Assembly: GCA_002791275.1 (NCBI GenBank)
Contig: PFWT01000007.1
Coordinates: forward strand, 26,859-90,858
DNA: 64,000 bases
Origin: Candidatus Uhrbacteria bacterium CG_4_9_14_3_um_filter_41_35
GTDB taxonomy: Bacteria; Patescibacteriota; Patescibacteriia; UBA9934
Direction: 5' to 3'
Each line of letters begins with the position of its first letter. Position 1 is the stretch's first letter. Below are positions 25,160 to 60,133 of this stretch, in pieces. The notes below the pieces were generated by a model that saw nothing but the letters and a program-made list of their open reading frames with translations, had not been told where the DNA came from and ran no database searches. Made by a program: the position numbers and the translations under genes.

Positions 25160-25479
25160 ATTTTATGAAATTCGTTAGATAAACTGGTGCAAATCTTATT
25201 TTGATATGCAAAAAACCAGAAGTCACAAAACATCACAAAAATTGATGTTTAGCGGCTTCTAGCCCTAAAATCGCTTGAAGATTGTAGGTAAATTGTAATT
25301 TGTTAATAAAAACGGCTTCCTTTCATTCTCTCTCGAAGCTTCGAGAAGGTTTTCCCTCCAGCTAAACTGGACGGATCTTTCTTCTCGGTTCGATCCAAGA
25401 ACCTGTTGTTGGGTTATGACCCTGCGATTTTCGGCATAACCGAGAATCGACGGGTCACAACCCGATAGATACTCTTTTA
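25160..25479 (-). promoter_or_regulatory. 320-nt structured intergenic region between rpsJ and rplC (attenuator, internal promoter or leader)
   Basis: On the minus-strand RNA, directly after the rpsJ stop: a nested ~21-bp hairpin (GGGUUGUGACCCG...CGGGUCAUAACCC enclosing CGAUUCUCGG/CCGAAAAUCG), then GGUUC..GAACC, a perfect palindrome UCUCGAAGCUUCGAGA and a U-run. An AT-rich ~170 nt follows before the rplC ATG. Confidence 0.4.
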
Positions 25480-25815: not shown

Positions 25816-25879
25816 AAAGGACAATTTTTTAAGCAAGAAAGGAAAAGGTCTTAAGCGACCTTTTCCTTAATTGGCTTTC

Positions 25880-27058
25880 TTATTCAATAATCTTTGTTAC
25901 AACTCCAGCTCCAACTGTTCGTCCACCTTCTCGGATAGCAAATCTCATTTGCTCTTCCATAGCAACTGGTTGGATTAGTTGGATTTCAAGGTTAACTGTG
26001 TCTCCAGGCATAACCATCTCTGTTCCCTCAGGAAGAGCAGTTACATCACCGGTAACGTCAGTTGTTCGAATGTAGAACTGTGGCTTATAACCCTTAAAGA
26101 ATGGCTTGTGTCGTCCACCTTCCTCTTTTGTAAGAGAGTAAACCTCAGCCATAAACTTTGTGTGTGGCTTTACAGAACCAGGCGCAGCAAGCACCATACC
26201 TCGAAGAACGTCCTCCTTCTTAATACCTCGAAGAAGTAGTCCAGCGTTGTCTCCTGCCATACCTTTATCTAGGTTCTTGTTGAACATTTCGATTCCGGTA
26301 ACAACAGTCTTTTGTGTGTCTCGAATTCCAACGATTTCAACTTCATTGTTCAAGTTGATAATTCCTCGTTCAATTCGTCCAGTAACCACGGTTCCTCGAC
26401 CTTCAATTGAGAAAACGTCCTCGATTGGAAGTAGGAATGGCTTATCAGTATCTCGTACTGGAGTAACAATATATTCATCTAGAGCTTTTACAAGTTCTTT
26501 GATTGAATTTACAGCTGACTCCTCTCCTTCGATAGCCTTAAGAGCTGATCCTCGGATGATAGGTGTTTCGTCACCTGGGTACTCATACTGTTTCAAAAGG
26601 TCTCGGATTTCCTCTTCAACAAGGTCAACAAGTTCTGGGTCATCAACCATGTCAATTTTGTTAAGGAAAACCACAATCTGAGGCACTCCAACCTGACGTG
26701 CAAGAAGAATGTGCTCACGTGTTTGTGGCATTGGACCGTCTGCTGCTGATACAACCAAGATTGCACCATCCATCTGAGCCGCACCAGTGATCATGTTCTT
26801 AACATAATCGGCGTGACCTGGACAGTCAACATGGGCGTAGTGTCGTGTTTCTGACTCGTACTCAACGTGCGATGTTGAGATTGTAATTCCACGCTCTCGT
26901 TCTTCAGGAGCGTTGTCAATCTGACTAAATTCCTTTTTCTGTCCTGACGGAGAGAAAAGAGAAGAAAGAGCAGCAGTAAGGGTAGTCTTACCGTGGTCAA
27001 CGTGACCAATTGTTCCCACGTTAACGTGAGACTTTGAGCGATCAAACTGTTCTGCCAT
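25880..27058 (-). CDS. tuf: Elongation factor Tu
   Basis: [19 protein letters not shown] motifs; 392 aa. Confidence 0.95.
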
Positions 27059-27114
27059 ATTAGTATTAATATTAGGGTAATTCCCTTTTTTTTACTTATT
27101 AAGTAAGTGGGGAG

Positions 27115-27143
27115 AGTATAACAAAAAGCTGGAAATATTGCAA
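27115..27143 (-). promoter_or_regulatory. Candidate sigma70-type promoter for tuf
   Basis: On the minus strand: TTGCAA-17 nt-TATACT, about 55 nt upstream of the tuf ATG. Confidence 0.35.
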
Positions 27144-27175
27144 GTCTTAGCCGTGGATTACGGTCATAAATAAAA

Positions 27176-27212
27176 AAATGCTAAGTTTTTTGCTAACGTT
27201 AGCATTTTTTAT
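27176..27212 (-). terminator. Intrinsic terminator after the upstream inserted genes
   Basis: On the minus RNA: AUGCUAA-loop-UUAGCAU followed by U7; palindrome gctaacgttagc. Confidence 0.5.
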
Positions 27213-27232
27213 GTGTAAAAAATGTTTTAGTT

Positions 27233-27823
27233 CTATTCAATTGGTTCTAAATAAAATTGTTCTTCATTATCGAACTCAGCAGGTAGTATTTCTGAAGATT
27301 TTTTATTTTTTAACTCCTCAAGTACAACATCCTTCTCTGGTTCGTAAACTTTTTCTTGAATAAGCGGAGCAAATATAGCTTCAGGCAATTCAAGATCCTC
27401 ATCTTCAAAATGTTCTTCTGCCACCATTTCCCTTTTTGCTTTCATTCTTTGCTCTAATTCGTTGGTATGTTCATTGTCAGTTCTCTTTTCAGTTTGAGGC
27501 TGTTCAGTCACGAGACTGTGAGGATTTTCATTAATCTGGATTTCAGGTTCAAATTCATCAAAATTATTATTATTCATATACATCTCATCCTGAAAATCTT
27601 CTTCTGAAACCATACAGCAATTTTCCTGGTCATTTCGTCCACAACAACTTTCACCTTTTGAGCAAGTGTTATTTGATTCTCCAGAAATCAAATCGAACAT
27701 TAATTCATAGTCATCAAGACCCATGATTACCATTGGTTCTTCATCCCCCTCCCCAGCTACAATCAAACGATCACCCGTCCGTTCAGCTAAGCGAATTAAT
27801 CTTTTTAGATTCTTTTCATTCAT
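27233..27823 (-). CDS. Highly acidic hypothetical protein with Cys cluster
   Basis: 196 aa, ~30% Asp/Glu. Motif CSKGESCCGRNDQENCC. Confidence 0.55.
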   Translation of the reverse strand: MNEKNLKRLIRLAERTGDRLIVAGEGDEEPMVIMGLDDYELMFDLISGESNNTCSKGESCCGRNDQENCCMVSEEDFQDEMYMNNNNFDEFEPEIQINENPHSLVTEQPQTEKRTDNEHTNELEQRMKAKREMVAEEHFEDEDLELPEAIFAPLIQEKVYEPEKDVVLEELKNKKSSEILPAEFDNEEQFYLEPIE

Positions 27824-27898
27824 ACGCTCCTATCTTATCCTATTTTATATTGTGGTCAAGTAAAAAAAGAGCCTGCGAAATTAATCGCAGGCTAAAAC

Positions 27899-28900
27899 TC
27901 ACGTTTGGTCGTAAACAACTTCCGACACGAAGTCGGCTTGAATCTCAGGATCTGACGGACGCTTACAGAGTGCAAAAAGCACAATCTGGAGTGCAGACCT
28001 TGTGTCCTGCGCAAGGTCGTAACCGTCATTTCTGACGACTTCCATGAGTGCCGGCGGAGTCGCATACTGTTCAAGCATTGCGCTTACCATCTCGGGTTCG
28101 AGATTCTCGACCCTAACAAGCCGAAAAGCCTCCCGCAACAGCTCAGTTTGGTGGTTGTGTGCTTTTCTGGCGTAGCTAGCTGAGTCTAGACACCTCCAAG
28201 AAAAGACCTCCTCAGACCAAGTAAACAGCTGGGAAATGAAGCCCAGAATCTCCTGACGGCGCCGTTCGCCCGTCTCTTGTTCGAGACTTAGCAGACCATT
28301 TACGGTCCGCAACCGATGACCCGAGTCTTCGACCTTGAGGCGAATAAAACGTTCAACCTCTGCGGTATGACCGTCAATTTCTGCCAAGGCTCCAATCAGC
28401 GCTTTTCCGGAGAAAAACCGTAAGTCTTCCGAGGTTGGCAGTTCCCGACGCTCCAGTTCACTGTCGGACATCACCAGCTTCAGAAACTCAAGGCGTGCAA
28501 GTGTGGAATCGCGGATTGCCTCAGTGAGCGCTTCGACCGGTTTTCTAACCTGATCGAGCTCATACTGAAGATTCTGACAATTCTGCCTCTCCGCATCCAG
28601 TCGTTTCTGAATATGCTCAGTCTCTTTTTGAGCATTGTTCAGCTCCGATTCAAGCCCGTTTGCCTCTTCCGAGAAAAGGCTAACTTGACTGAAAATAACT
28701 TGTAAGAGATGAGTTAGAAACGCGAGACTGAGCAGTCCAAAGAGTGCTGAAGAGCCAAGCAACAGCATGTCGGTCGTCTCAAAAACCCGATGATAGGTAC
28801 TCATTATGAGGCCAGTCGTCGAGATGACCCACATGAACACCAGAACAGACCCCGTCAAGATTTGATTTCTTGAAATAGTTTCAATTTCCCTGTGTTCCAT
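27899..28900 (-). CDS. Hypothetical membrane-anchored coiled-coil protein (elevated GC)
   Basis: Two N-terminal TM helices, ~80-aa coiled coil (ELNNAQKETEHIQKRLDAERQNCQNLQYELDQ), C-terminal globular domain. Local GC is ~50%. Confidence 0.55.
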   Translation of the reverse strand: MEHREIETISRNQILTGSVLVFMWVISTTGLIMSTYHRVFETTDMLLLGSSALFGLLSLAFLTHLLQVIFSQVSLFSEEANGLESELNNAQKETEHIQKRLDAERQNCQNLQYELDQVRKPVEALTEAIRDSTLARLEFLKLVMSDSELERRELPTSEDLRFFSGKALIGALAEIDGHTAEVERFIRLKVEDSGHRLRTVNGLLSLEQETGERRRQEILGFISQLFTWSEEVFSWRCLDSASYARKAHNHQTELLREAFRLVRVENLEPEMVSAMLEQYATPPALMEVVRNDGYDLAQDTRSALQIVLFALCKRPSDPEIQADFVSEVVYDQT

Positions 28901-29326
28901 GATGAACCTCCATAATTAAAAGAACGAAGCAACGAGTTTTTCACAAAATCGTGTTATTGTCAATATAGCCAATAAACAAAGAACATAGCAGATTTGCTAT
29001 GTTCAATTAATAAACTGATCTATTCGTTTTAGTTCGGTCGAGTATACTAAACGTTGACGCCATTGTGATTTTGAATATTCAAGCCTAGTTCCAACGCTCA
29101 CCATACCATTTTTTCATACCACTCACGCTGATCATCTTCGATTTCAATTCTACGCTTTAATTTTTCAGGCATACTAAATTGTAACAAGCCATTTTCTTGT
29201 AACTTAAATCTGAAAACTACGTCAATTTTTTTCATTCACTTCACACAAAGTTTTAACTAGTAAAAGTGGATTTTTCACATTATTCAATTATCTGCACTAC
29301 TACAAAAATAACGATCAGGCGCACCA

Positions 29327-31333
29327 CTATTTCAAGCGCGTAATGACAAGTGAATGAGCCGCTTCACCTTCGCCCAATTCTAACTCATTACCTTGCTCAT
29401 ATTTTTTATTTCTTTCGTCTTCTTCATAAACATCATCCAAAGAATTTATATATGTTCTCTCACCTTTTTGAAATTTGTAGGAGATGATTCCCTGTTCCTT
29501 GAACGCAATCAATGCTCGATTTAACCCTTCATTATCAAATCCATCCCCGTACCCACCAAAATACGCATTTTTATTAATTGGGCCGATGATGTACTTTCCG
29601 CCGATTTTTAGATACGGAAGGGCACATTCAATATTGCGCGAAAAACCTTCTTGACCTAAGAATTCACCTTCATGCATCCAAACACTTGTTAAGGCAAGAA
29701 TCCTGTCTTGAGGTTCTATGCTCGGAAAATCAAAAGGGAAAAACCCGTGGAGAGCGATAGACTTATTAGGTTGCCGAAAAAAGTGCGTGCGCGACCACGC
29801 GATTTCCAGGTCCCCAAGGTACTGATTGAGTGTTTTTGATGTAAGTGAAATGCCTATTCCTTCCAATCGTTCTTTCTCTTTAACAAGTTGAGGAAAAAGC
29901 GTTTCTCCATACGTGGTGAGTTGTTCAAAACGAGACACAAATTCTTCCAGAGTTTTACGTGTCCGAAGCGAAACTGGAAATCCGGGAACGGACACACCAA
30001 AATCTCTATCGTTGGAATTTAGCCGGAAGTTCCAAAGAGTATCTGTTTCAGGATTTTCCTGGTCGTAAAAAACGAGCCAATCGAAATAAATATCTTCCAT
30101 TTCTCTTACACCTTTTGTAACTCTTGCATGTGATGTAGCGTTTGGTAGCTCGGAAAGCCAGTATTTTAATCTACCTATTTTTCTATTTACTTCATTATCG
30201 TGCACACGTAAATATTCCACAGGCAAGGCTTCGGTATATTTTGACCACTGCTCAACAAATTCCCCCCAAGCCTCGTGGTTGCCCAAACTGTCAATTTGCT
30301 GCTGTTTTGTTTCAAAGAAAACAGTTATATTTTTTTCCAAATTCTGATATGCGTTATTTGTTTTAAAGTACGAGATAACCTCTTCTCTTGAGAGTGTTGG
30401 ATTATCCTTCGAAATGATTTCAATTTTTCTCTCGTTATACGTTTCCGCGTTCACACCTAGCATGTTATACAATTCTTTCGCATCATTCATTGTCCACGAT
30501 CCATCTATGAATTTTTTTGCGCGACGACGTAATTCAGATAACTGTCCGTGAGCCTTTGTATCATTAAATGCACCTGTTGCAATTGTGGTCGCAAGCTCAT
30601 CACAAGCATGAATAACATCTTGAACGAAATCCTTATAAACATTTCCGTCTTTTGGCGTAAATTGCGGCCCAAAAATGACACCTTCAAGTGCACGGATATC
30701 TTCAAAATATAGGTTTTCTAACCAATTATTCGTTCCTGTCTCTGATGATCCGGAAATATAGGCGCTCAAAACAGGAGGAAGTAATTCACTCGCGTACTCG
30801 TATTCCACAATCGTCGCGCGCTCTCGATCGATCGCCGTAAACGGATCCCCGATCACCGCAATATCCGCATTGGGAGGGAAAACATCTTCCGGAGGAAGTT
30901 TAAAAAGTTCCGGGTGCATAAAAGCCGGTCGAGACTTTACAATCTTTGTTCCTTCAGAAACTTCCTTCATCCACTGCTCTACAAAAACGTCCGGAAGTGC
31001 AACAGTTTCGATGATCATATTGGAGTACTGATCTCTATAATACCCCATTCGATCTTCACCTAATTCGAATGTAATAAAATCAGTATCCGTATGTCCATTT
31101 CGGCCATTTTGAAAGGTAATTTGAATCGCATAAAGCTCCCCATTCATACCGACAACTTCGGAACCGGGAACAGTGTGTGTATTCACACGACCACCGATCT
31201 CAAAAACCTGAGAAAGTTCCCGCAAGCGTGTTTCAATCGATCGTGCGGTGTGTAGACCTTCTCTCTTTGTGGCAAGTAATTCCTCTCTCAAGGTTTCCAA
31301 TTGTTCTTTTTTGAGCTGTTTTGCCTCTTGCAA
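29327..31333 (-). CDS. Large hypothetical soluble protein (668 aa)
   Basis: Long ORF with uniform coding bias and an N-terminal coiled coil. No motif I can assign. The start is a TTG just after an in-frame stop. Confidence 0.6.
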   Translation of the reverse strand: MQEAKQLKKEQLETLREELLATKREGLHTARSIETRLRELSQVFEIGGRVNTHTVPGSEVVGMNGELYAIQITFQNGRNGHTDTDFITFELGEDRMGYYRDQYSNMIIETVALPDVFVEQWMKEVSEGTKIVKSRPAFMHPELFKLPPEDVFPPNADIAVIGDPFTAIDRERATIVEYEYASELLPPVLSAYISGSSETGTNNWLENLYFEDIRALEGVIFGPQFTPKDGNVYKDFVQDVIHACDELATTIATGAFNDTKAHGQLSELRRRAKKFIDGSWTMNDAKELYNMLGVNAETYNERKIEIISKDNPTLSREEVISYFKTNNAYQNLEKNITVFFETKQQQIDSLGNHEAWGEFVEQWSKYTEALPVEYLRVHDNEVNRKIGRLKYWLSELPNATSHARVTKGVREMEDIYFDWLVFYDQENPETDTLWNFRLNSNDRDFGVSVPGFPVSLRTRKTLEEFVSRFEQLTTYGETLFPQLVKEKERLEGIGISLTSKTLNQYLGDLEIAWSRTHFFRQPNKSIALHGFFPFDFPSIEPQDRILALTSVWMHEGEFLGQEGFSRNIECALPYLKIGGKYIIGPINKNAYFGGYGDGFDNEGLNRALIAFKEQGIISYKFQKGERTYINSLDDVYEEDERNKKYEQGNELELGEGEAAHSLVITRLK

Positions 31334-31958
31334 TTCTTTGTCTGTTTCTTCTAAAACGGAATCAAAAATCGTTTAATATCTTGTTTTGGCATCCTTCGTC
31401 CCATTCCTTCTTGTAGCATATATAAATCAACAACGTTTATTAACTTATTCTCAAACTTTTAGTGCAACTAAATTACGTGGTTTCAAGAATCTGGCGCAAC
31501 GAGTTCATTAAATTGTTCATCAGGCTGTAGAATCCGATAGCCACTCGTGGGCGGTCGTTTAGTTGTCTCTGTACTCGTTGCATTTCTCTTGTAGATATTG
31601 TATCAAAGTCTGTTCCTTTTAGGAAATACTAACGGATCAATCCGTTCGTGTGTTCGTTTGTGCCATGTTCCCATAGGCTTCCTGGATGAGCGAAGAAAAC
31701 TTGAATACCTATATCCCACATTCTATACTCAATGCATCACCGAAAACGAAAAAGTATAAAAAGACACGGATTTGCAATATATGTCAAATTTGGGCAAATA
31801 AAACCCTATGTGTGAAAAAGCATTAACTTGTTTAAACAGGGATAAAATCGAATTTCGTGTGAAACGTTAGCAAAGCCATCGTAAGATGACCAGGATATTA
31901 AACAAATCACAACGCTATTAACCTGAAGCACATTGCCTCGCAGAAATTTTATACTAAT

Positions 31959-32354
31959 TTATGAACAAATTGGAAATAATCCGTATTGAATAGTTGTCTT
32001 TATAAATAATCCCCAGAATAAAATCAAAAGTATGATTCCAAGTCCGGTAGATACATTCCATGCGACTTTTGCCTCTTGTCGAATCTGATTTTTCCAAGAT
32101 TCATCAATTAACCTTGTTACTGATTGATTCATTAATTTGATTCTTTGCTCTATCAAATCTTCTCCATATTCCTTCGCTGAATAACGCGAACTTAAAAAAA
32201 GCATGATAATCGGAGCGCTAAGAAATATGCTTTGTCCATAAATTTCTACAAAACACAGACTTACATGTAGCTGAAATATAACTATCGGCAAAAACAAATA
32301 GATCAAATAACCTATTAATACATTTTTTGTTTCGAACTTTCTTTTCTTATTCAT
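31959..32354 (-). CDS. Small hypothetical membrane protein
   Basis: ~131 aa with three TM helices, immediately upstream of fusA. Confidence 0.4.
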   Translation of the reverse strand: MNKKRKFETKNVLIGYLIYLFLPIVIFQLHVSLCFVEIYGQSIFLSAPIIMLFLSSRYSAKEYGEDLIEQRIKLMNQSVTRLIDESWKNQIRQEAKVAWNVSTGLGIILLILFWGLFIKTTIQYGLFPICS

Positions 32355-32407
32355 ACTCAATCAAGTATATATAAAAAAATAGCCTATTGGCTATTTTTTT
32401 TCGGTAA

Positions 32408-34504
32408 TTAACCGTTTCGTTTTTCAATAATTTCTTTAGCAACATTGCTTGGCACCTCTTTGTATTCTGAGAATGACATTGAGTAGCTAGCTCGTCCCTG
32501 AGTAAGTGATCGAAGTCCTGTTGCGTATCCGAACATTTCTGCAAGTGGAACCTGCGCTTTTACTGTTTTTACAGTACCGCGCTCGCCCATTTCCTGAATC
32601 TGTGCTCGTTTTCCGTTCAAATCTCCAACAACTGTTCCCATGAAATCTTCCGGAGTTACAACCTCAACATCCATTACCGGTTCCAAAATTACTGGGTTGG
32701 CCTTTCTAGCAGCTGCTTTGAAAGCCATTGAACCTGCCATTTTGAAGGCTGATTCGTTTGAGTCAACATCGTGGTATGAACCGTCAAAAACAGTTACCCG
32801 AATATTGATAAGCGGATATCCAGCAAGAATTCCACGGTCCATTGCTTCCTGAGCTCCCTTCGAAATCGGAGTGATATATTCTTTTGGAATTGAACCTCCC
32901 TTTGTTTTGTCTAGGAACTCATAGTTGACAACTTTTCCATCCTCATCCTCTTCAGTAATTGGTTCAATCTTGAGCCAAGCGTGTCCATATTGTCCACGTC
33001 CTCCAGACTGTTTAACGTATTTTCCTTCAGCTTCAGCTTCCATTCTAATTGTTTCTCGGTAGCTAACCTGAGGTCGTCCAACGTTAACGCTTACCCCATA
33101 TTCTCGCATCATTCGATCAACGATAATTTCTAGGTGAAGCTCTCCCATTCCTGAAACAATAGTTTGCATCGTTTCCTCATCTGTTCGAACTCTGAAAGTT
33201 GGGTCTTCTTCTGCAAGCTTTGATAGAGCCATCGACATCTTTTCTTGGTCAGCCTTTGTTTTTGGCTCGAGTGCAAGAGAGATAACCGGCTCTGGGAAGT
33301 TGATTGACTCTAGGATAATTGGGTGTGCAGGATCTGAAAGTGTGTGTCCTGTAATTGTTTCTTTTAGTCCTACTGCAGCTGCGATTTCTCCAGCGTGAAT
33401 CTCTGAAACGTCTTCTCGAGAGTTAGCGTGAAGACGCACGATTCGGGAAATTCTTTCTTTCTTACCTGTTGTTGCGTTCAAAACGTAACTTCCAGCAGAC
33501 AAAGTTCCTGAATAAACTCTAAAGAAAGTAAGCTTTCCAACGAATGGATCAGCTGCAATTTTGAAAGCAAGCGCTGCAAATGGAGCCTTGTCTGTAGCTT
33601 CTCGTGTAATTACAAGGTCTTTATTTGCAGGATCAAATCCTTCAACTGGTGGTACGTCTAGTGGTGATGGCAAGAAGTCGATAACAGCGTCAAGCATCAT
33701 CTGTACTCCTTTGTTTTTTAGAGCAGATCCACAAAGAATTGGGAAAATATCCAAATTAATTGTTGCTTTTCGAAGAATTTTCTTCAGTACATCAATTTCA
33801 ATTTCTTCTCCAGACAAAAATTTCTCCATTAACGCTTCATCATTTTCAACAATAGCCTCAACAAGACTTGTTCGGTACTCTTCAGCCTTTTTCTTGTACT
33901 CATCTGGAATTTCGATTTCATCAATAACTTTTCCTTCTTCATCTCGGTACATGAAAGCTTTCATTTTTAGAAGGTCGATAATACCTTCAAACCCACCTTC
34001 AGTTCCAATTGGAAGCTGAATTGGGTAAGCCTTCTTTGTTAAACGATCTGAAATAGACTGAACGTCTTTGTAAAAATCAGCGCCAGTTCGATCCAACTTG
34101 TTAATGTAACAAATTCTTGGAACATTGTATTTATCAGCCTGGTGCCAAACAGTCTCAGACTGAGGTTCTACACCAGCAACACCGTCAAAAACTGTAACTC
34201 CACCGTCTAAAACTCGTAGGGAACGTTCAACTTCTACAGTGAAGTCAACGTGTCCCGGAGTATCGATAATGTTAATTCGATGATCTTTCCAAAAACAAGT
34301 AGTCGCAGCCGAAGTGATAGTAATACCACGTTCCTGCTCCTGCTCCATCCAGTCCATTTCAGCGTTTCCTTCATGAACTTCACCGATTTTGTGTTTTTTT
34401 CCTGTGTAGAAAAGCACGCGCTCAGTAGTTGTTGTTTTACCAGCGTCAATGTGGGCAATAATTCCAATGTTACGAACGCGGTCTAGTGGATATTCACGGG
34501 ACAT
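32408..34504 (-). CDS. fusA: Elongation factor G
   Basis: [24 protein letters not shown] motifs; 698 aa. Confidence 0.95.
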
Positions 34505-35196: not shown

Positions 35197-35616
35197 TTAT
35201 TTCTTTGGTTTCTTGACTCCGTATTTTGAACGAGATTGATTTCGTCCATCCACACCAGCAGAGTCATAACGACCACGAACGATGTGGTAACGAACTCCAG
35301 GAAGATCTTTAACACGACCGCCTCTAATCATAACGATTGAGTGCTCCTGCAAGTTGTGACCCTCGCCTGGGATATATCCGTTAACTTCAGTGCCGTTTGA
35401 AAGTCGCACACGTGCTACTTTTCGAAGCGCTGAGTTCGGTTTCTTAGGTGTCATGGTAAAAACCCTAACACATACTCCCCGTTTGAACGGTGAGCCTTTT
35501 CTTAGTGAAGTCTGCTTCCGGTGAAGCGTATCAAGGGTGTACTGCATCGCAGGAGACTTTGATTTTGTACTCTTGCTCTGACGTCCCTTTCTAATCAATT
35601 GATTTATGGTAGGCAT
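35197..35616 (-). CDS. rpsL: 30S ribosomal protein S12
   Basis: [12 protein letters not shown] start (internal Met); [10 protein letters not shown] loop. Confidence 0.9.
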
Positions 35617-35692
35617 AAGTGGCAGTAATGTATCACGAAGTAAAAAAATCGTCAACAGATCATGAGTGAACTTAGCATAATTCATTTTTTCT

Positions 35693-37942
35693 CTACTCCA
35701 AGCCAAGTTCTGTTCTTAAATTATTAGCCTCCTCCACATCTACTTCTATTAGCATTTCAAGGGCTTTATTTACAGCAAAAGACTCCCTTGCCTCATTAAA
35801 AATTGCTGTGCCCGCTCTTAAAACCTGGGTATTCGTTTGAAACGACGACATTGTTTTTACAGTATAGTCTAAAATTTCAGTATCGTGATCTCCTTTTTTG
35901 TATCTCTCAGCTAAAATTGGTAGTAAACGAGCGTCCCCGTTTACGAGCAAGCCCATTTCTTCAATTTTATGAAGCTTTTTAAAAGCTATCTCAAACTCAG
36001 ACATTGATGCGTAAGCTAAAACATACTGAAATTCGAGCGCAACTCTTTGTTCGTAAAATGTTCTGGAAAAAGCAGGTAGTCTATCCATTGCTGTTTGATA
36101 ATAAGTTAGTGCTTGTTCTGGGTTCGAGCGCGCTAACTCAATATCACCAAGCGTAACGTACGATTCTGGTCGATTCGGAGCTAGAAGTTTTGCATAATTA
36201 GAAAATTGTTCAGATTTTAATAGATAACCATGATCGTAATAACTAAGTAGTTCAAAAGCTGATCCAGCGCTATAGTTGATTCTATAATTATTTGGGTGCT
36301 CGGTGGCAGATTCTTCCAGTTCAGTTGTAACTATTTTTAATATTTGTTCAGACTCAGGCGAGTGTCGTTGCTCCTTCTTCTCTGAAGCTCGAAGTTCAAT
36401 AAAAATGTTACTCATTACATCAGCAGTTACAAACGATCTGTGTTTTACAGCTTGTTCAACAAAATTTAAGGCTCCGCCGGATTGTTTTCGGATCAGAATT
36501 ATCGCCTCACTTCCAGCAATTACAGTCTGATACGGATAAATACAGAGATACAGTTGAATAGGGATAAGTAAAATACCCGCAGAGATAAAGTGGACCAAGC
36601 GTAATTTAAGTTGAGGAAATTCAAAGTTCACAGCTGAGGTTATGTTTTTTAACTCTACGTCTTTAGTTAAAAATGCCGAGTATGCAAATAATACATACAG
36701 TGTGATACTTGAAGAAAATAGATCGAACAAGAAAAATAATTGAACAAGTGAAGCTATGAACAAAATAATTAAAAGCCGAGTTGCTAATCTATCGTGTTTT
36801 GTAGTTTGTTTTTCTGAATGATAAAATAGCGTGCTAATAATTGAAGACCACATCAGTACCCAGAACACAAAACCCACCAGCCCCAAATCGACTAATATTT
36901 CTAGCATTCCATTATGAACACGATCAAACCAAGGTTCGTTTAGATAAACACCACCGATATTTGTGGTAAAATGCTTATCGAAAACTGGAGAAAATGTGTT
37001 ATGTCCAAAACCAAAAATTGGTTTCTCCAGAAACGCCTCTCCCGCTACTTTCCAAGAAAAAAACCTATCTTGATTTTTATCACTATAATAAATCCGCTTA
37101 ATTATATAAGAAGCGTTTGGTTCAAGCTGGGATCTAATATTTGGCACTCGCATCACAATAAATGACGAGATGCTTAAAACAACAATTAAAATTAAAGCAC
37201 CGACCAAAATTTGTTTCCGAGGCTTTTTTTCTTCGAACACTAAAAATATAGTTTCTAGAATTCCTGCTGTTAGCGAGGCTAAAAAACTTGCTCGACTAAC
37301 TGTTAGGAATAGTGCAAATAGCGTTATCAGGGAACTGATACTTAAAATCAATCGATTCTGCCAGATTTTTTCTTTAATTAAAAAATATATTGAAAGAAAA
37401 AAATGTGGCAGTAAATACTGAGCAAAAAATAACGGATTATCAAAAACCGAACCGAAGCGATGATCATTATTTAATATCATTTGCGCACCTGACCAGTCAG
37501 AAATTGATTTTAACGAAAACATTACGGAAATTAAAAGCGATGTTTTCAACAAAATCAACCAATCCTTCTTTTTAAAAACCGAAACTAGACTTGAAAATAA
37601 CAACCAAAAAAATATATAACTAAGCACCCCCATCATTCTTTCCTTCGTCCCCCAAAATGATGTTAGAGGATCTATACTTATAAATAAATTTACTACAAGG
37701 ATGAGGGTAAAACCTGTAAGAGTTAGTGCTACCGGATGACCAATTTTTAGTCGGTATTCATTATTTGCAAGCGCTAGAAGCACCCAAGCTAAACTCATAA
37801 CGCTAACTACGCCGTAAAAATAGCTCGCCCTAACAACCGTTAAATCACTAACAAGTTTTACTGAAACCAACATCGGCGTGAGCAAAACTAAGAATGCACA
37901 CGCCAAAATGATATTTTTAAGCCACTTTTCTTTAAAGTCCAC
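35693..37942 (-). CDS. O-antigen ligase/polymerase (Wzy_C)-like polytopic membrane protein with C-terminal TPR domain
   Basis: ~12 TM helices in the first 430 aa with a large loop typical of the Wzy_C/O-antigen-ligase family; C-terminal ~300 aa of TPR-like helical repeats. GTG start 2 nt after the upstream stop. Confidence 0.6.
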
Positions 37943-51424: not shown

Positions 51425-52780
51425 TTACTGCGTTTTCCAGTAGAGCATCATCGCATGACGCTCCTTCGAGTCCCACGACAGCCTTGGCCACCAAAGTGGA
51501 CAAAGGTAGTCAAAGAGTTGCGCAGCTTGGTAGGTGCTATGTCGATCACCACCAGTTGAGGTTTGAGTTGAGAGGTATTCGCGAGCGGTGGTCACGATTT
51601 GCTCAACTCGACTGGCAATTATTCGATTGTCGTACTCAATCTGCCTGGTAAACCGCCCGATTGTCTTAGTGTCCCAATAGTCCCTGTGACTATTCTTGTT
51701 AACGCCACCGGGATCAGGGATTTTTTCGAGCGGTCCGGTCCAAATACGCTTATGCGTGTACTCACTGAAAAACTCGGCATCGGACTTTGTGGCTGCTCGT
51801 CTAGTTCCGGTGCGTCCAACAACCGAAACAACGATGTACATCCAGCCACCACGATCCGCCACAGCCTTCTTTGACGAACCTTGAACGCAGTAACGCTCCT
51901 TCTTTTCCACGGCACGTTCCAGACTCTTGTCTCGACTAACGTGCCGAATTTCCCAGATCTCGTCGTCGATCTCGACAGTTCGCAGTTCCCACAGCTCTTT
52001 TTCTTCATGAACTGTTAGACCCTGAAGACGCATCTCATGAGCTTTTCTTTTGTCTTCAGGAATACCTGAACCAGCTTCAACTAATTCACGTTCGAGTTGC
52101 TCGGCAGACTCCTTGATCGACTGTCGAAGATCAAGCGCGGCTCGATGTGCTTCCGCCTTTGATTCAAAAAACAGTGGTTGTCCAAGCGCTCGGCTTGAGT
52201 TTGCAGGGTTGGTTTCAATCACGATCCAGAGCTTCACAAACTGGCCAGTAAACATTTTACGTAGCGCAATTTCTTCGATTTGCGAGAGATTCTCAGCAAC
52301 ATCCGCCTCTGACTCAACTACATCCCAAGAAAGTAGCTGGAGCGCAAACACAAACGATCGTTGCGCCTCTTCTCTAGTCCTAATGTCCTGCTCGGACAAT
52401 TCCGGACTATCCGGAACTGTTGCCATTTTGAACAAGCGAATTGGCTCAAGAGCAACCTGTACTGGTCCAAAAGAATCAAGCGCTGAAAAACGTTGCTTGA
52501 GCGGACCTGTAATTAGGCTATTGAAGTACTTTCGTGACTGATCGATCTTTCGTTGCAGGTCCTTGTAAAACTCGTTCGCACCCATCGCGGCAACTAACGA
52601 TTCTTCCCCGCGATACTCCCGATTCACTTGGCAAAACGCCATAAACAGTGCGACCTTCTTACAGGTTGCTCGCTTCTCAAGTGTCATTTCATAGAGCTCC
52701 CGCATCCTCATTACAAGGGGCACGAACTCTGTAAAACTAATGAAATGCTCTTCTTTATCCGGATAAAAGTAACCCGTCAT
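51425..52780 (-). CDS. Hypothetical protein (451 aa), elevated GC
   Basis: Long ORF at ~52% GC in a ~40% GC background. No assignable motif. Confidence 0.55.
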   Translation of the reverse strand: MTGYFYPDKEEHFISFTEFVPLVMRMRELYEMTLEKRATCKKVALFMAFCQVNREYRGEESLVAAMGANEFYKDLQRKIDQSRKYFNSLITGPLKQRFSALDSFGPVQVALEPIRLFKMATVPDSPELSEQDIRTREEAQRSFVFALQLLSWDVVESEADVAENLSQIEEIALRKMFTGQFVKLWIVIETNPANSSRALGQPLFFESKAEAHRAALDLRQSIKESAEQLERELVEAGSGIPEDKRKAHEMRLQGLTVHEEKELWELRTVEIDDEIWEIRHVSRDKSLERAVEKKERYCVQGSSKKAVADRGGWMYIVVSVVGRTGTRRAATKSDAEFFSEYTHKRIWTGPLEKIPDPGGVNKNSHRDYWDTKTIGRFTRQIEYDNRIIASRVEQIVTTAREYLSTQTSTGGDRHSTYQAAQLFDYLCPLWWPRLSWDSKERHAMMLYWKTQ

Positions 52781-55584: not shown

Positions 55585-56778
55585 TTACCACGCTGGACAG
55601 TGATAAGCCCGCTGAACGCTGTTGTAGTCCGTGGGACCGTTACCGTTCACGTCGTAGTAAAGGAACTGTTGAACACTACAGTCACGAGCCGGCGTTCGCT
55701 TCGAGATGTCGGCGTAGGTGTGGATGTAGCCAAAGACAGCGCTGTTTGGCTGAACGAAGTGACGCCAGTACTCCGGCGCAAAGCCACTTTGCGGGTTGGG
55801 ACCCACGTAAGCAAAGCCGTTCACCCACACGGTTTCGTCATCCTTCGCCGGAAATACTTGGCAGTATTCCGGCGCCATTGACGAGTTCGTGTTGATGTAC
55901 TGGTTGATCACCTCCCGCCCCTCCTGATAGAAGGGGTAGCTCTGCACCGCCATCGACTGACTGATCGCGTAGAGCTTGACGGCCGTGAGCGTCGAGGCGT
56001 AGTTCTGCATATCCATACAGATCAGAATCCGGTTATCCTCCGTGAGACTGGATGGATCCGTGGGCTCGTTCAGAACCAAATCCGTCCCCGGATCTTCGAC
56101 CTCGGGTGGCGGACCCTGCTCCCAGACCGGGAGCAGGGAACCGTAAACGTTGCCCTCCACCAATCCGCAGACCATATTTTCGGTCGACAAAGTCTTCTGA
56201 AGACCAGCGTTCACATCCTGCGCACGGATCGAAAGCCCCTCCACACTGGTACCATAAGTACCGTCCCTCGAGGCATCGCCACGGTGACGGCCGATGTGCA
56301 CGTGATCGCCAGTCGAGGAACCTGTGGTACCTTCGATACCAATCAGGTCCCCCATATCGATCCATCGGCCGTCCTCGGTGTCCGCGCGCTTCAGATGCGC
56401 CAGAATGATGTAGGTACCATCGCCGAGGTCAATGTTCACGTGAATTCCGAACCCGCTATCGAGATCGGTGTGAACGTACGCCGTACCGGAAATCGGCGCG
56501 TACACGCTGAGATCCATATCGTTTGGCGTATCAAGATCCACGTCGTGCATAGTGGAGTCGTAGTGGTGCGAATAGCTACCAAACGGCCCCTGCACGCACT
56601 GCAAGCGAACACCGTGGGCGAAGGGCATATGAACAACAACACTGTCCTGACCACCGAAGTGGTCAGTATCGTAGCTCATAGGCACCACCTCACCAGCCGT
56701 GAACCAACTCGGCGTACAGCCGTGTTGCAAAGACAGGATCAGCAAAAGAACAGACACACGAAACAACTTGGTAAGCAT
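55585..56778 (-). CDS. Secreted M23 (LytM-type) metallopeptidase, high-GC, likely horizontally acquired
   Basis: Signal peptide MLTKLFRVSVLLLILSLQHGC. M23 motifs HxxxD (HHYDSTMHDVD) and ILAHL...GDLIGIEGTTGSSTGDHVHIG. GC ~58% against ~40% in flanking genes. Confidence 0.75.
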   Translation of the reverse strand: MLTKLFRVSVLLLILSLQHGCTPSWFTAGEVVPMSYDTDHFGGQDSVVVHMPFAHGVRLQCVQGPFGSYSHHYDSTMHDVDLDTPNDMDLSVYAPISGTAYVHTDLDSGFGIHVNIDLGDGTYIILAHLKRADTEDGRWIDMGDLIGIEGTTGSSTGDHVHIGRHRGDASRDGTYGTSVEGLSIRAQDVNAGLQKTLSTENMVCGLVEGNVYGSLLPVWEQGPPPEVEDPGTDLVLNEPTDPSSLTEDNRILICMDMQNYASTLTAVKLYAISQSMAVQSYPFYQEGREVINQYINTNSSMAPEYCQVFPAKDDETVWVNGFAYVGPNPQSGFAPEYWRHFVQPNSAVFGYIHTYADISKRTPARDCSVQQFLYYDVNGNGPTDYNSVQRAYHCPAW

Positions 56779-56835
56779 TGTTGCTTCCTTATTGTAATTT
56801 TTGGACGAGATGCAAAGCAGTAATTTGCTAAACAA

Positions 56836-59203: not shown

Positions 59204-60133
59204 ATGGATTCCGAAAACTCGGCTATATGCCCCACTTACCGCCTCTATCAGACCAACCCCTACAACATCGGTACGCTAGTTAATAACGTCTTAGCCGAAC
59301 ATGCTCGGCTTCAGGAGCTCTTCGGAAGAGTACTTCAAACGCCCTCTGTGTATATTCCAGGTCGATTGAAAGGCGTACCTGGCAAGAAGATTCTGCATGC
59401 TTTTACCGAGGTTGGGATTTATGCCCAGGATCTACCGGTCTCGAGCGTGCGGGCTTCGATCATGAACCTAGCCGCAAAAGACATCGCGACCAGGTTTGGG
59501 AGTGAAGCAGTCGTGTTCTTCTTGAACCCGCGCGCCAGTGCTGAACGTCTCGATAACGATGCTGTTCAGCAGGTACTGTCCGCTCTCCGCACCCCCGGTG
59601 TGCATGAAGTTGGAGTCTGGGCTGGTCAAAACCCGCAACACGCCTATGTTGGTGCTGGTTTTGTAGACGCTGGCACCGCATTATATCGCGCTTCGAATCT
59701 GCTCGACCGCCCCTTCGACCCCATCACCGACGACCCCGAGTCTGGCGCGCCAAGCTGGCAAGTCCGTGATCTTGTGTCGAAGGAGTCTTACAACCTCTGC
59801 GGGGCTGAAGACGCACTTCGGAAGTCCGTTTTCCGAAGTCTTGCCATCGTCAGCACGGCTGGCAAGCTTTATGGCAACGACATTATGAGTGGCGGGAACG
59901 ATACCCTCCACTGGTTCAAGCTCACCAGGGCCTGGCTCCTATGGCTCGCGAGCTTCGAGCAAGAACCTGTCGGGCTCTGGCTAAACGAGATTAGTCTTGA
60001 AGCGCGGACGGACAGTTTTAATCACTTCGTCAGAGATCACCTCCGAGGTGTTCACCCTAAGTGGCAAGACGAAGCTGAAAAGGTTGCGCGCGCTATACAG
60101 CTTCTCAACTACGAGGTTTATCTCAAGGCTTAG
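59204..60133 (+). CDS. Hypothetical protein (309 aa), high-GC, likely horizontally acquired
   Basis: ~55% GC ORF directly after a terminator, with its own RBS (aggagga N7 ATG). No assignable motif. Confidence 0.5.
   Translation: MDSENSAICPTYRLYQTNPYNIGTLVNNVLAEHARLQELFGRVLQTPSVYIPGRLKGVPGKKILHAFTEVGIYAQDLPVSSVRASIMNLAAKDIATRFGSEAVVFFLNPRASAERLDNDAVQQVLSALRTPGVHEVGVWAGQNPQHAYVGAGFVDAGTALYRASNLLDRPFDPITDDPESGAPSWQVRDLVSKESYNLCGAEDALRKSVFRSLAIVSTAGKLYGNDIMSGGNDTLHWFKLTRAWLLWLASFEQEPVGLWLNEISLEARTDSFNHFVRDHLRGVHPKWQDEAEKVARAIQLLNYEVYLKA

Follow-up and report, generated by a model that had tools for sequence, protein, structure and literature searches.

Probable stepwise accretion of unrelated genes between fusA and tuf, beside an acidic-protein gene paired with tuf, in Candidatus Uhrbacteria

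Introduction

Small multigene insertions that separate translation operons have been described in some lineages of the Gammaproteobacteria, where they were argued to be neutral only if placed downstream of a complete operon and ahead of the promoter that follows it, and where the Salmonella inserts were described without mobility genes (Brandis et al., 2019; PMC6735719). Here, we analyzed a comparable arrangement in a 64,000-nt stretch of DNA (contig PFWT01000007.1, positions 26,859 to 90,858; hereafter the window) that represents a Candidatus Uhrbacteria population of the candidate phyla radiation (CPR; Patescibacteria) from Crystal Geyser. In this window, the genes for elongation factor G (EF-G; fusA) and elongation factor Tu (EF-Tu; tuf) are 5349 nt apart, and the interval between them holds four open reading frames (ORFs) of 131/133, 668, 333, and 196 aa on the same strand, which we refer to as ORF133, ORF668, ORF333, and ORF196.

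As with the inserts of Brandis et al., a block of 3.4 kb sits here between a terminator (that of fusA) and a promoter (that of ORF333), and relatives hold different cargo at the same junction. Unlike those inserts, the junction lies inside the classical single operon rpsL-rpsG-fusA-tuf, which is already divided in this clade; moreover, the hosts are CPR bacteria instead of Gammaproteobacteria, and a mobility scar of the insertion sequence family IS30 is present. As a phenomenon, the insertion is of an already known kind. An initial annotation, made from the sequence alone, had described the interval as one foreign cassette of ~5 kb that split the operon, with an architecture recalling phage-defence or envelope-stress modules. 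Our comparison of related loci indicates that the interval probably arose by accretion in three layers, at a boundary between transcription units where insertions are tolerated, and is not a functional four-gene cassette.

Results and discussion

Gene arrangement in the window

Around the interval, rpsL and rpsG lie upstream of fusA (32408-34504; a 698-aa ORF, named elongation factor G by NCBI and with Pfam EF-G domains on identical contigs), and rpsJ and rplC lie downstream of tuf (25880-27058; from the ORF list and NCBI naming). All of these genes, together with every feature of the interval described below, are on the minus strand. We found the identical gene order on 24 independently assembled contigs from several samples and assemblers, including three NCBI metagenome-assembled genomes (MAGs) of Candidatus Uhrbacteria from Crystal Geyser, and the six contigs compared in sequence are the same as the window across the region, bar one mismatch in rpsL. 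Moreover, the EF-Tu, EF-G, 196-aa, 333-aa, and 668-aa proteins are exact matches to NCBI MAG proteins, with consecutive accessions in three assemblies. Since the same order is recovered on 24 contigs, and the compared ones are identical, the arrangement is real and no assembly chimera, and the layout of four same-strand ORFs stands as initially described. All window-type contigs are clonal, so strain-level variation is of no use for an analysis of selection.

Comparison with the fusA-tuf gap of related Patescibacteria

For comparison, we took 80 fusA loci of related Patescibacteria, each from a genome that represents its species, in which EF-G shares 65-82% identity with that of the window; as only species representatives are included, sampling is sparse near the window genome. 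Both fusA and tuf are held by 64 of these loci, on which the gap counts rest. Here, the fusA-tuf gap ranges from 105 to 6726 nt, being under 200 nt in six loci, 200-1000 nt in 38, and over 1 kb in 20 (the largest, 6.7 kb), and the common gap of 400-800 nt contains one small ORF on the same strand. The initial annotation had leaned on fusA and tuf being adjacent almost always, a premise that consequently fails in this clade. In the closest GTDB relatives, namely L007 (EF-G identity of 82%) and L010 (78%), the gap is ~610 nt and has only a homolog of the 196-aa protein inside. In fact, tblastn gave zero matches to ORF668, ORF333, ORF133, or the IS30 fragment among the 80 related fusA loci, and this comparison of str-operon synteny, which had been proposed as a check, identifies ORF133, ORF668, and ORF333 as lineage-specific additions.

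Besides the 196-aa family, the gap contents of the relatives are nearly all singletons in an all-versus-all BLAST of their ORFs, and include an APH-type kinase, an NYN-domain protein, a PMT_2 glycosyltransferase, and many ORFs without a Pfam match. Of 40 loci, 13 have additional DNA between fusA and the small gene, and two have it between the small gene and tuf. The site thus has the marks of an insertion hotspot, these being conserved flanks with varying, unrelated cargo (20 of 64 gaps over 1 kb, with singleton contents) and, in the window, a mobility trace and odd composition (the IS30 remnant; z-scores for GC of +2.1 in ORF333 and -2.7 in ORF133, but of -0.2 in ORF668). Matches of ~3 kb to fusA were considered as inteins and rejected, as these are cross-matches to tuf through the shared GTPase domain.

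Among the individual loci, L009 has an APH-family phosphotransferase as cargo in this hotspot (L009:12222-13040), L049 has, in a single gap of 6.7 kb, two paralogous secreted proteins of ~360 aa that are beta-propeller-like (L049:3864-4955 and L049:8484-9545), and L063 has a 1007-aa secreted protein on the opposite strand (L063:12142-15165, minus). In five loci without the 196-aa family (L040, L051, L059, L084, and L085), the gap is filled by a second small family of 178-204 aa, which has an N-terminal signal or transmembrane segment and a conserved ...EYGF...SV(M/L)...E..V(R/K)NS(I/L)S(I/V)... region.

A sister contig and the window-specific block

Through its homolog of ORF196, with 80% protein and 81% nucleotide identity, we found a 2.7-kb contig from another sample (L087). 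Its order is the fusA 3' end, a terminator, a 309-aa homolog of ORF333, the ORF196 homolog, and the start of tuf, without ORF133, the IS30 remnant, and ORF668. The window and L087 share 88.5% nucleotide (97.9% amino acid) identity at the fusA 3' end, 81% nucleotide identity in ORF196, 96% in the ORF196-tuf spacer plus tuf start (238 nt around the tuf promoter), and 78% over 97 nt in the promoter and 5' untranslated region (5'UTR) of ORF333. This homology passes the fusA terminator to ~32372 and restarts at ~28980-29005, just upstream of the conserved ORF333 promoter and 5'UTR. What lies between is a window-specific block of ~3.4 kb, which is made up of ORF133, the IS30 remnant, ORF668, and a 45-aa ORF, and which is situated between a terminator and the next promoter.

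Within this block, ORF133 (31959-32360; 131 aa in the gene callers, with the ATG at 32354) is AT-rich (GC 0.308, z -2.7) and is found in this species only, with no Pfam, NCBIfam, or PADLOC match and no homologs. The small protein with three transmembrane segments that was initially read here has two strong hydrophobic segments and one weaker one, and may be a small membrane protein or a spurious ORF. Two further features were absent from the initial annotation. One is the 45-aa ORF (29098-29235), which is predicted by some gene finders only and has no homologs. The other is an IS30-family transposase pseudogene (31474-31706; NCBIfam NF033563 transpos_IS30, E 8.8e-20, profile positions 213-266 of 267), consisting of the C-terminal ~77 codons, truncated at the 5' end and with an in-frame stop, so that no intact DDE transposase is encoded. 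As in IS30 insertion sequences, the C-terminal 54 positions of the transposase profile are encoded; unlike in these, there is only a fragment, with no inverted repeats or target duplications and with neither an intact nor any second copy of IS30 in the window.

Predicted terminators, promoters, and transcription units

A predicted terminator hairpin with a U-run follows fusA (32373-32400; minimum free energy, MFE, of -13 kcal/mol, z -5.6); it is conserved in L087, L007, and L010, and the window-specific insert has its left breakpoint here. A terminator-like hairpin (28981-29004; MFE -13.7 kcal/mol, z -4.5) lies at the other end of the block, about where the homology with L087 resumes. The predicted promoter and 5'UTR of ORF333 (TATATTGACA..., with a GGAGG ribosome-binding site; 28901-28975) are conserved with L087, and ORF333 is followed by a terminator with a 9-bp stem, six GC pairs, and a U-run (27870-27893; MFE -17 kcal/mol, z -6.9). 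ORF196 is preceded by a promoter-like site, TTGACC-16-TAAGAT (27832-27859), that is conserved in L010, L011, and L087, and is followed by a terminator-like hairpin and U-run (27173-27210; MFE -11.3 kcal/mol, z -4.8) that is near-identical in L087. As for tuf, a sequence match to a promoter, TTGCAA-17-TATACT with an upstream TG, is found at 27115-27143. The initial proposal that tuf has its own candidate promoter, with a terminator after the inserted genes, is in keeping with the last two of these features.

In relatives without the insert, the fusA terminator and the promoter ahead of the small gene are already there. On this ground, the insert did not split the operon, as had been supposed, since the boundary pre-existed, and the predicted signals indicate that the classical str operon of this clade is already divided into separate units. 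RNA families were found neither at the Rfam gathering threshold over the window nor at E<=1 over the insert.

Between tuf and rpsJ, we also observed a 12-bp perfect inverted repeat (25839-25868), which is terminator-like on both strands and may separate tuf from the S10 operon.

Layered insertion at a pre-existing boundary

The accretion that we propose would have three layers. Layer 0, found across relatives, is the ancestral small gene with a Phd/YefM-like N-terminal domain, an acidic tail, and a FYLEPIE-type motif, directly upstream of tuf; it would have its own promoter, with fusA ending in an intrinsic terminator and tuf likewise under its own promoter. Layer 1, found in two lineages, is the ORF333 gene, with its own predicted promoter and terminator, between the fusA terminator and the small gene, and its ~33% identical alleles against 81-98% identical flanks would reflect fast diversification or recombination with a distant allele. 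Layer 2, found in this species only, is the ~3.4-kb block, which would have been inserted with the fusA terminator (~32372) on one side and the ORF333 promoter (~28980-29005) on the other, an IS30-associated event being the likely vehicle. The site may be tolerant, in line with Brandis et al. (2019), in that DNA between a terminator and the next promoter would exert no polar effect on tuf, and this would explain why unrelated cargo is fusA-proximal in 13 of the 40 loci and between the small gene and tuf in only two. The genes of the interval would act independently, as is suggested by their lack of co-occurrence.

Two successive insertions are favoured over many independent deletions by parsimony, given that the 80 related loci hold no trace of the added genes. 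It is nonetheless conceivable, if unlikely, that the whole block was ancestral to the Uhrbacteria lineage and that deletions removed parts of it from L087, L007, L010, and others. If only the window and L087 are compared, a single deletion is no less parsimonious than a single insertion, the GC of ORF668 is native-like, and neither a target-site duplication nor inverted repeats mark an insertion. However, many clean independent losses would be needed to leave no trace of ORF668, ORF333, ORF133, and the IS30 remnant in 80 loci, and the breakpoints match the terminator-promoter boundary; moreover, a transposase remnant lies within the block, and homologs of ORF668 occur at other genomic sites in other CPR genomes.

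Several points weigh against a stepwise accretion of layers as set out here. The promoters and terminators are sequence predictions, the polarity of insertion versus deletion between the window and L087 rests on parsimony with outgroups, and the separation of layers 1 and 2 rests on the one 2.7-kb sister contig. At the block edges, a repeat search (27100-32450) gave no terminal inverted repeats, direct repeats, or target-site duplication, returning short chance-level pairs only, and the IS30 remnant is inside the block and not at its edge, which makes a role of IS30 in the transfer circumstantial. A terminator-promoter module is apparently duplicated at both junctions, with alignment scores above all shuffles; as the sequences are short and AT-rich, this resemblance is weak and no more than suggestive of a duplicated intergenic promoter module. 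ORF668 has a native-like composition (GC z -0.2), with no donor found, and may have been relocated within the genome and not necessarily imported. Finally, the genes may have a lineage-specific functional link.

As regards the ~5-kb foreign cassette of the initial annotation, what holds is that ORF133, ORF668, and ORF333 are lineage-specific, as seen from the 80 loci, L007 and L010, the IS30 remnant, and the composition of ORF333. What does not hold is a single cassette of four genes, as ORF196 is ancestral and at least two successive layers are present, with L087 having ORF333 in the absence of ORF133, IS30, and ORF668.

ORF196 and its tuf-paired family

ORF196 (27233-27823) is strongly acidic, with 53 Asp and Glu against 19 Lys and Arg residues, and includes five Cys. 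An iterative hidden Markov model (HMM) search seeded with this protein found 40 gap ORFs, with E-values from 1e-15 to 1e-36. When run on every stop-to-stop ORF of 50 aa or longer in the loci (9,669 ORFs; ~1.3 Mb), the family HMM matched 42 loci and the window, in every case in the fusA-tuf gap on the same strand, and nowhere else among these ORFs. Two further database members (P0019 and P0020) are likewise between fusA and tuf, and the family occupies the gap in 44 of 66 related Patescibacteria loci (about two thirds). Its stop codon lies 69-324 nt before tuf in 38 of 40 loci (median of 165 nt; 174 nt in the window), and tuf is also the next downstream gene of the homologs in L087, L094, and L095. 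In fact, this gene is fixed just upstream of tuf in Uhrbacteria-, Falkowbacteria-, Kerfeldbacteria-, and Komeilibacteria-like lineages. Because the family is fixed in the gap near tuf across the clade, and L007 and L010 carry it alone, ORF196 is, as judged from these comparisons, an ancestral resident tightly paired with tuf, not foreign and outside any cassette. Among the components of the interval, the 196-aa protein alone would have a functional tie to its location.

In the family, an N-terminal domain of ~45-60 residues is conserved (consensus ..L.r.I.L..KTGD..IV.d......fVv..L..YE.L), and there is a frequent middle motif, LTE(D/E)ELLDKIN.DIA.W, as well as an acidic linker with an Asp and Glu fraction of 0.2-0.4. 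In about half of the members, the extreme C-terminal motif (F/Y)Y(L/I/F)EP(I/V)E is conserved, and the window protein ends with ...EEQFYLEPIE. The initial description of a very acidic protein with a Cys cluster is accurate for ORF196 itself, with its acidity and five Cys, but the cluster is not conserved in the family, being restricted to a few lineages, and most members are without Cys.

The N-terminal domain of ORF196 (residues 4-44) matches PF02604 (Phd/YefM) with 23.1 bits and an E-value of 6.5e-5, which is below the gathering score of 29.8; NCBIfam likewise gave no match above threshold. Among 30 family members, 16 give PF02604 matches at E<=0.01 (best, 1.3e-6), with every score seen below the gathering score, and the five best PDB matches of the family profile are YefM antitoxins, albeit weak ones (E 0.2-0.3). 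From these alignments, the N-terminal domain of ORF196 likely has a Phd/YefM-like fold. Like the Phd/YefM antitoxins, whose sequences align with its N-terminal ~45 residues, the 196-aa family would have a folded N-terminal domain followed by an acidic, probably disordered tail. In contrast to them, it lacks a cognate toxin gene, with no adjacent gene of the YoeB, Doc, or RelE type in any of the 40 loci and tuf next in 38 of these; it also has a fixed site upstream of tuf over a wide clade, its own FYLEPIE and LTEDELLDKIN motifs, and scores under the Pfam threshold.

One family member, P0020 (L094:1093-1461), was automatically labelled by the Joint Genome Institute (JGI) as 'PHD/YefM family antitoxin component YafN of YafNO toxin-antitoxin module'. 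This protein, too, lies between fusA and tuf and ends with EEQFYLEPI as in the rest of the family, and its antitoxin label is probably a domain-level over-annotation.

The absence of an adjoining toxin gene, with tuf in its place, bears directly on whether ORF196 might be an orphan type II antitoxin (Phd/YefM), left over from a degraded toxin-antitoxin module and unrelated to tuf. We regard this as quite improbable, for the position is also fixed over lineages whose EF-G is only 65-82% identical to that of the window, unlike that of mobile toxin-antitoxin modules, the conserved C-terminal FYLEPIE and middle LTEDELLDKIN motifs indicate purifying selection and a distinct function, and the Pfam scores all fall short of the gathering score. 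Such an origin would nonetheless fit the PF02604 matches in 16 of 30 members, the YefM antitoxins as best PDB matches, the YafN label given to one member by JGI, and the acidic, probably disordered C-terminal tail, which resembles antitoxin tails.

The 196-aa protein probably has a link to tuf or EF-Tu, be it as a dimeric regulator with the YefM fold or as a binding partner. A more specific and rather doubtful reading is that the family, not described before, belongs to the translation apparatus or to its regulation and is specific to the CPR, with a domesticated Phd/YefM-fold dimer whose acidic disordered tail would end in a (F/Y)Y(L/I)EP(I/V)E docking motif. The protein could then be a ligand of EF-Tu or, as acidic stalk-protein tails do, could contact the GTPase-associated region of the ribosome; another option is that its YefM-like domain binds DNA and serves to autoregulate the transcription of tuf. 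EF-Tu is the target of the kinase Doc, whose antitoxin is Phd, and a Phd-like protein paired with tuf would make for a suggestive parallel with this trio.

ORF333, a hyper-divergent membrane protein

ORF333 (27899-28900) has a GC content of 0.499, whereas the genes of the window average 0.417 (z +2.1), and its GC at third codon positions (GC3) is likewise raised (z +2.3), so that the composition check suggested with the initial annotation indeed returned an outlier. Also in agreement with that annotation, which gave a GC of ~50% and a membrane-anchored coiled coil, there are two N-terminal transmembrane-like segments, a coiled coil at ~65-150, and a helical C-terminal region, the coiled-coil assignment resting on sub-threshold matches to Pfam coiled-coil families. 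From these segments, ORF333 is predicted to be associated with the envelope or a membrane.

A single homolog is known, namely the 309-aa gene that L087 has at this site (E 5e-46, about 33-36% amino acid identity), whose aligned ATG supports the 333-aa start. While the two genes are unalignable as DNA, both are GC-rich (0.50 and 0.56), and both proteins have the C-terminal motifs ERRxLPTxEDxRF and RVENxxPE. A search of 5.8 billion proteins with ORF333 returned its own cluster only, and no match was found in phage genomes, nor in Pfam or NCBIfam above threshold. Two metagenome scans and one viral scan also gave no relatives; the automatic patterns in these were poorly chosen, and a hand-made ERRxLPTxEDxRF pattern was empty as well. 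The extreme divergence between otherwise similar genomes, together with the high GC of both alleles, points to diversifying selection or to allelic replacement by recombination. A UniRef label of 'HPt domain' for ORF333 was rejected as unsupported, with no Hpt in Pfam at E<=1 and no HPt protein among the PDB profile matches at E<=10.

ORF668, a methyltransferase-like fold in a rare family

ORF668 (29327-31333) has no direct match in Pfam or NCBIfam, and its full-length relatives have none in Pfam. A word-indexed search gave only five homologs (34-38% identity), and an exhaustive profile search gave 79 family representatives, of which ~35 are full length. Four homologs were examined for context, and these sit in four different housekeeping neighbourhoods on CPR-type contigs, none near fusA or tuf and none with relatives of ORF333, ORF196, or ORF133 alongside. 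The family is rare, and all contexts examined are on contigs of CPR type. Downstream of the homolog in L001, a neighbouring 289-aa protein was considered as an ORF333 relative and rejected (hhalign probability of 0.2%). An ancestral neighbourhood of PAP2, NTP-transferase, and YceG genes was looked for in the window and is absent, which is an uninformative test.

The distant tail of the profile search is composed of ~400-aa proteins, each matching two separate blocks of the ORF668-family profile. All ten of the ~400-aa relatives tested match PF08241 (Methyltransf_11) above its gathering score of 21.2 bits, in the part that aligns with ORF668 at ~525-590, and the two families align with each other with an hhalign probability of 99.8% (E 2.3e-30). 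The best PDB match of the ~400-aa family profile is the S-adenosylmethionine (SAM)-dependent methyltransferase 2p8j (E 0.0034), followed by several other methyltransferases. PDB sequence-profile searches with ORF668 were empty, and its own connection to PF08241 is transitive only, via these relatives.

An AlphaFold (AF2) model of ORF668 from a 28-sequence alignment reached a predicted local distance difference test (pLDDT) score of 83 and a predicted template modelling (pTM) score of 0.79; it superseded a first model from six sequences (pLDDT of 64), which gave meaningless helical-bundle matches. In the predicted structure, an N-terminal beta domain (~49-112) precedes a beta-alpha-beta core that is formed from ~125-185 and ~525-668, with a ~330-residue helical insertion between the core halves. 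A Foldseek search of the PDB with this model gave nearly all class I SAM methyltransferases among the top 50 (PNMT, COMT, NNMT, Rv0187, TM1293, and TehB), with a probability of 0.9-1.0 for the top ~20, but with E-values of only 0.014-0.1 and target-normalised TM-scores of 0.25-0.42, for the core only.

By this comparison, ORF668 shares a Rossmann-like alpha/beta core with the class I SAM methyltransferases (PF08241; TM1293, 1vlm; TehB, 2xvm/3cgg; Rv0187, 6jcl; COMT; PNMT; NNMT). Moreover, there are acidic residues at the end of strand 2 (VEYEY), and, through the ~400-aa relatives, the C-terminal HGFFP...QDRILALTSV.MHGWN...LPFLK.GGKYILGP corresponds to the LPf..sFD...RvLkpGG part of PF08241. 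In contrast, the core of ORF668 is split by the ~330-aa helical insertion and preceded by the beta domain, a direct Pfam match is lacking, and the Foldseek E-values are all at least 0.014. There is also no canonical glycine-rich motif I (E/DxGxGxG), which is the SAM-binding loop; in its place, motif I reads VIGDPF, with an invariant Gly162-Asp163-Pro164 within (V/I)(I/V)GDP(Y/F/W)Q.CD in all 28 aligned members and the ~400-aa relatives. A class I methyltransferase-like fold is well supported. While the initial statement that ORF668 has no recognisable domain is right as to direct Pfam and NCBIfam matches, it misses this remote likeness. ORF668 is best described as a soluble protein with a predicted class I methyltransferase fold and a large helical insertion, in which SAM binding and catalysis are putative.

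EF-Tu lysine methyltransferases with the class I fold exist, EftM being one of them. With its methyltransferase-like fold of the same class and its location between both elongation-factor genes, ORF668 might be imagined to methylate EF-Tu, EF-G, or a ribosomal component, so that the insert would be tied to translation and its placement adaptive. This is highly improbable, as the placement is found in one species only and with an IS30 scar, as the family has ~35 full-length representatives with all four examined contexts unrelated to fusA or tuf, and as motif I is non-canonical, so that SAM binding itself is putative.

The four genes as a putative defence module

The initial annotation had likened the four genes to a phage-defence or envelope-stress module, and had advised a search of defence-system models. 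In PADLOC-DB v2, we found zero families for ORF196, ORF668, and ORF133, and the only match was that of ORF333 to LmuB, which is sub-threshold (14.9 bits, E 0.002) and confined to the coiled-coil region. ORF668 had no match in phage genomes, and its family had none in viral contigs. No other genome was found to have the four genes together, and more than 40 loci have a member of the ORF196 family but none of the others. With no co-occurrence elsewhere, a predicted terminator for each unit, PADLOC empty for three proteins, and the phage and viral collections without relatives, it is very unlikely that the four genes form a module for defence or envelope stress.

In such a module, acquired as one functional unit, a membrane anchor and a coiled coil would act together with a large soluble partner and an acidic protein against phages or envelope stress. 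That the genes are adjacent and on the same strand would agree with this, as would the LmuB match, the IS30 scar, and the extremely fast divergence of ORF333 between sister lineages, which is also seen in some defence and surface genes. Yet L087 has ORF333 without ORF668 or ORF133, and homologs of ORF668 are found alone in housekeeping contexts, so that joint function of the four as an acquired module is scarcely credible. We accordingly retain the accretion of separate genes as the preferred account of the interval.

Other features of the window

Within the S10 operon, a 320-nt non-coding spacer separates rpsJ from rplC (25160-25479, minus), with a predicted fold of -109 kcal/mol against -70 +/- 5 for shuffles (z -8.0) and no Rfam family. 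A long rpsJ-rplC spacer is present across the clade, measuring 82-552 nt in 59 loci. Our alignment of the window with six relatives (L008:15513-15821, L009:19108-19377, L010:14266-14538, L011:14890-15158, L013:10900-11100, and L014:9232-9492) revealed the invariant blocks GAACC.RGAAGAAAGATC ... GAAAACCTTC and an invariant 11-bp stem, RGGCTAGAAG...CTTCTGGYTTTT, that is followed by a U-run. This stem encloses a variable hairpin with compensatory changes, with 10 of 28 predicted pairs changed on both sides in at least one sequence, and the stem motif is present in 10 of the 59 spacers and once elsewhere in the loci. We regard the spacer as a candidate for a new leader or attenuator of the ribosomal-protein type that precedes rplC in CPR bacteria resembling Uhrbacteria.

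Three further ORFs in the window are GC-rich outliers, and may be additional horizontally acquired genes: a 416-aa Peptidase_M23 protein (55585-56835, minus; GC 0.55, GC3 z +4.1), a 309-aa ORF without a Pfam match (59204-60133, plus; GC 0.54), and a 451-aa ORF, also without a Pfam match (51425-52780, minus; GC 0.49). None of these is a paralog of ORF333. Directly upstream of rpsL lies a 749-aa polytopic membrane protein with a Wzy_C (O-antigen ligase-like) domain (35693-37942, minus). The longest ORF of rpsL (35197-35706, minus) is 169 aa and overlaps the end of this protein, and its start is disputed by the gene callers (139, 162, or 169 aa).

Conclusions

The fusA-next-to-tuf order of model bacteria is not valid as a reference for this CPR clade, and what had the appearance of a defence-like cassette splitting an essential operon would, on the probable reading given here, be an ordinary accretion of unrelated genes at a pre-existing unit boundary. 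Among these genes, ORF333 is a hyper-divergent membrane protein that may be under diversifying selection, and the rare ORF668 family receives its first fold-level annotation, that of a predicted methyltransferase-like core that contains a large insertion and whose cofactor loop is non-canonical. The part that deserves follow-up is the pairing of a YefM-like acidic protein with tuf, as this conserved neighbour is a candidate lineage-specific, EF-Tu-linked factor in organisms with a reduced and unusual translation machinery.

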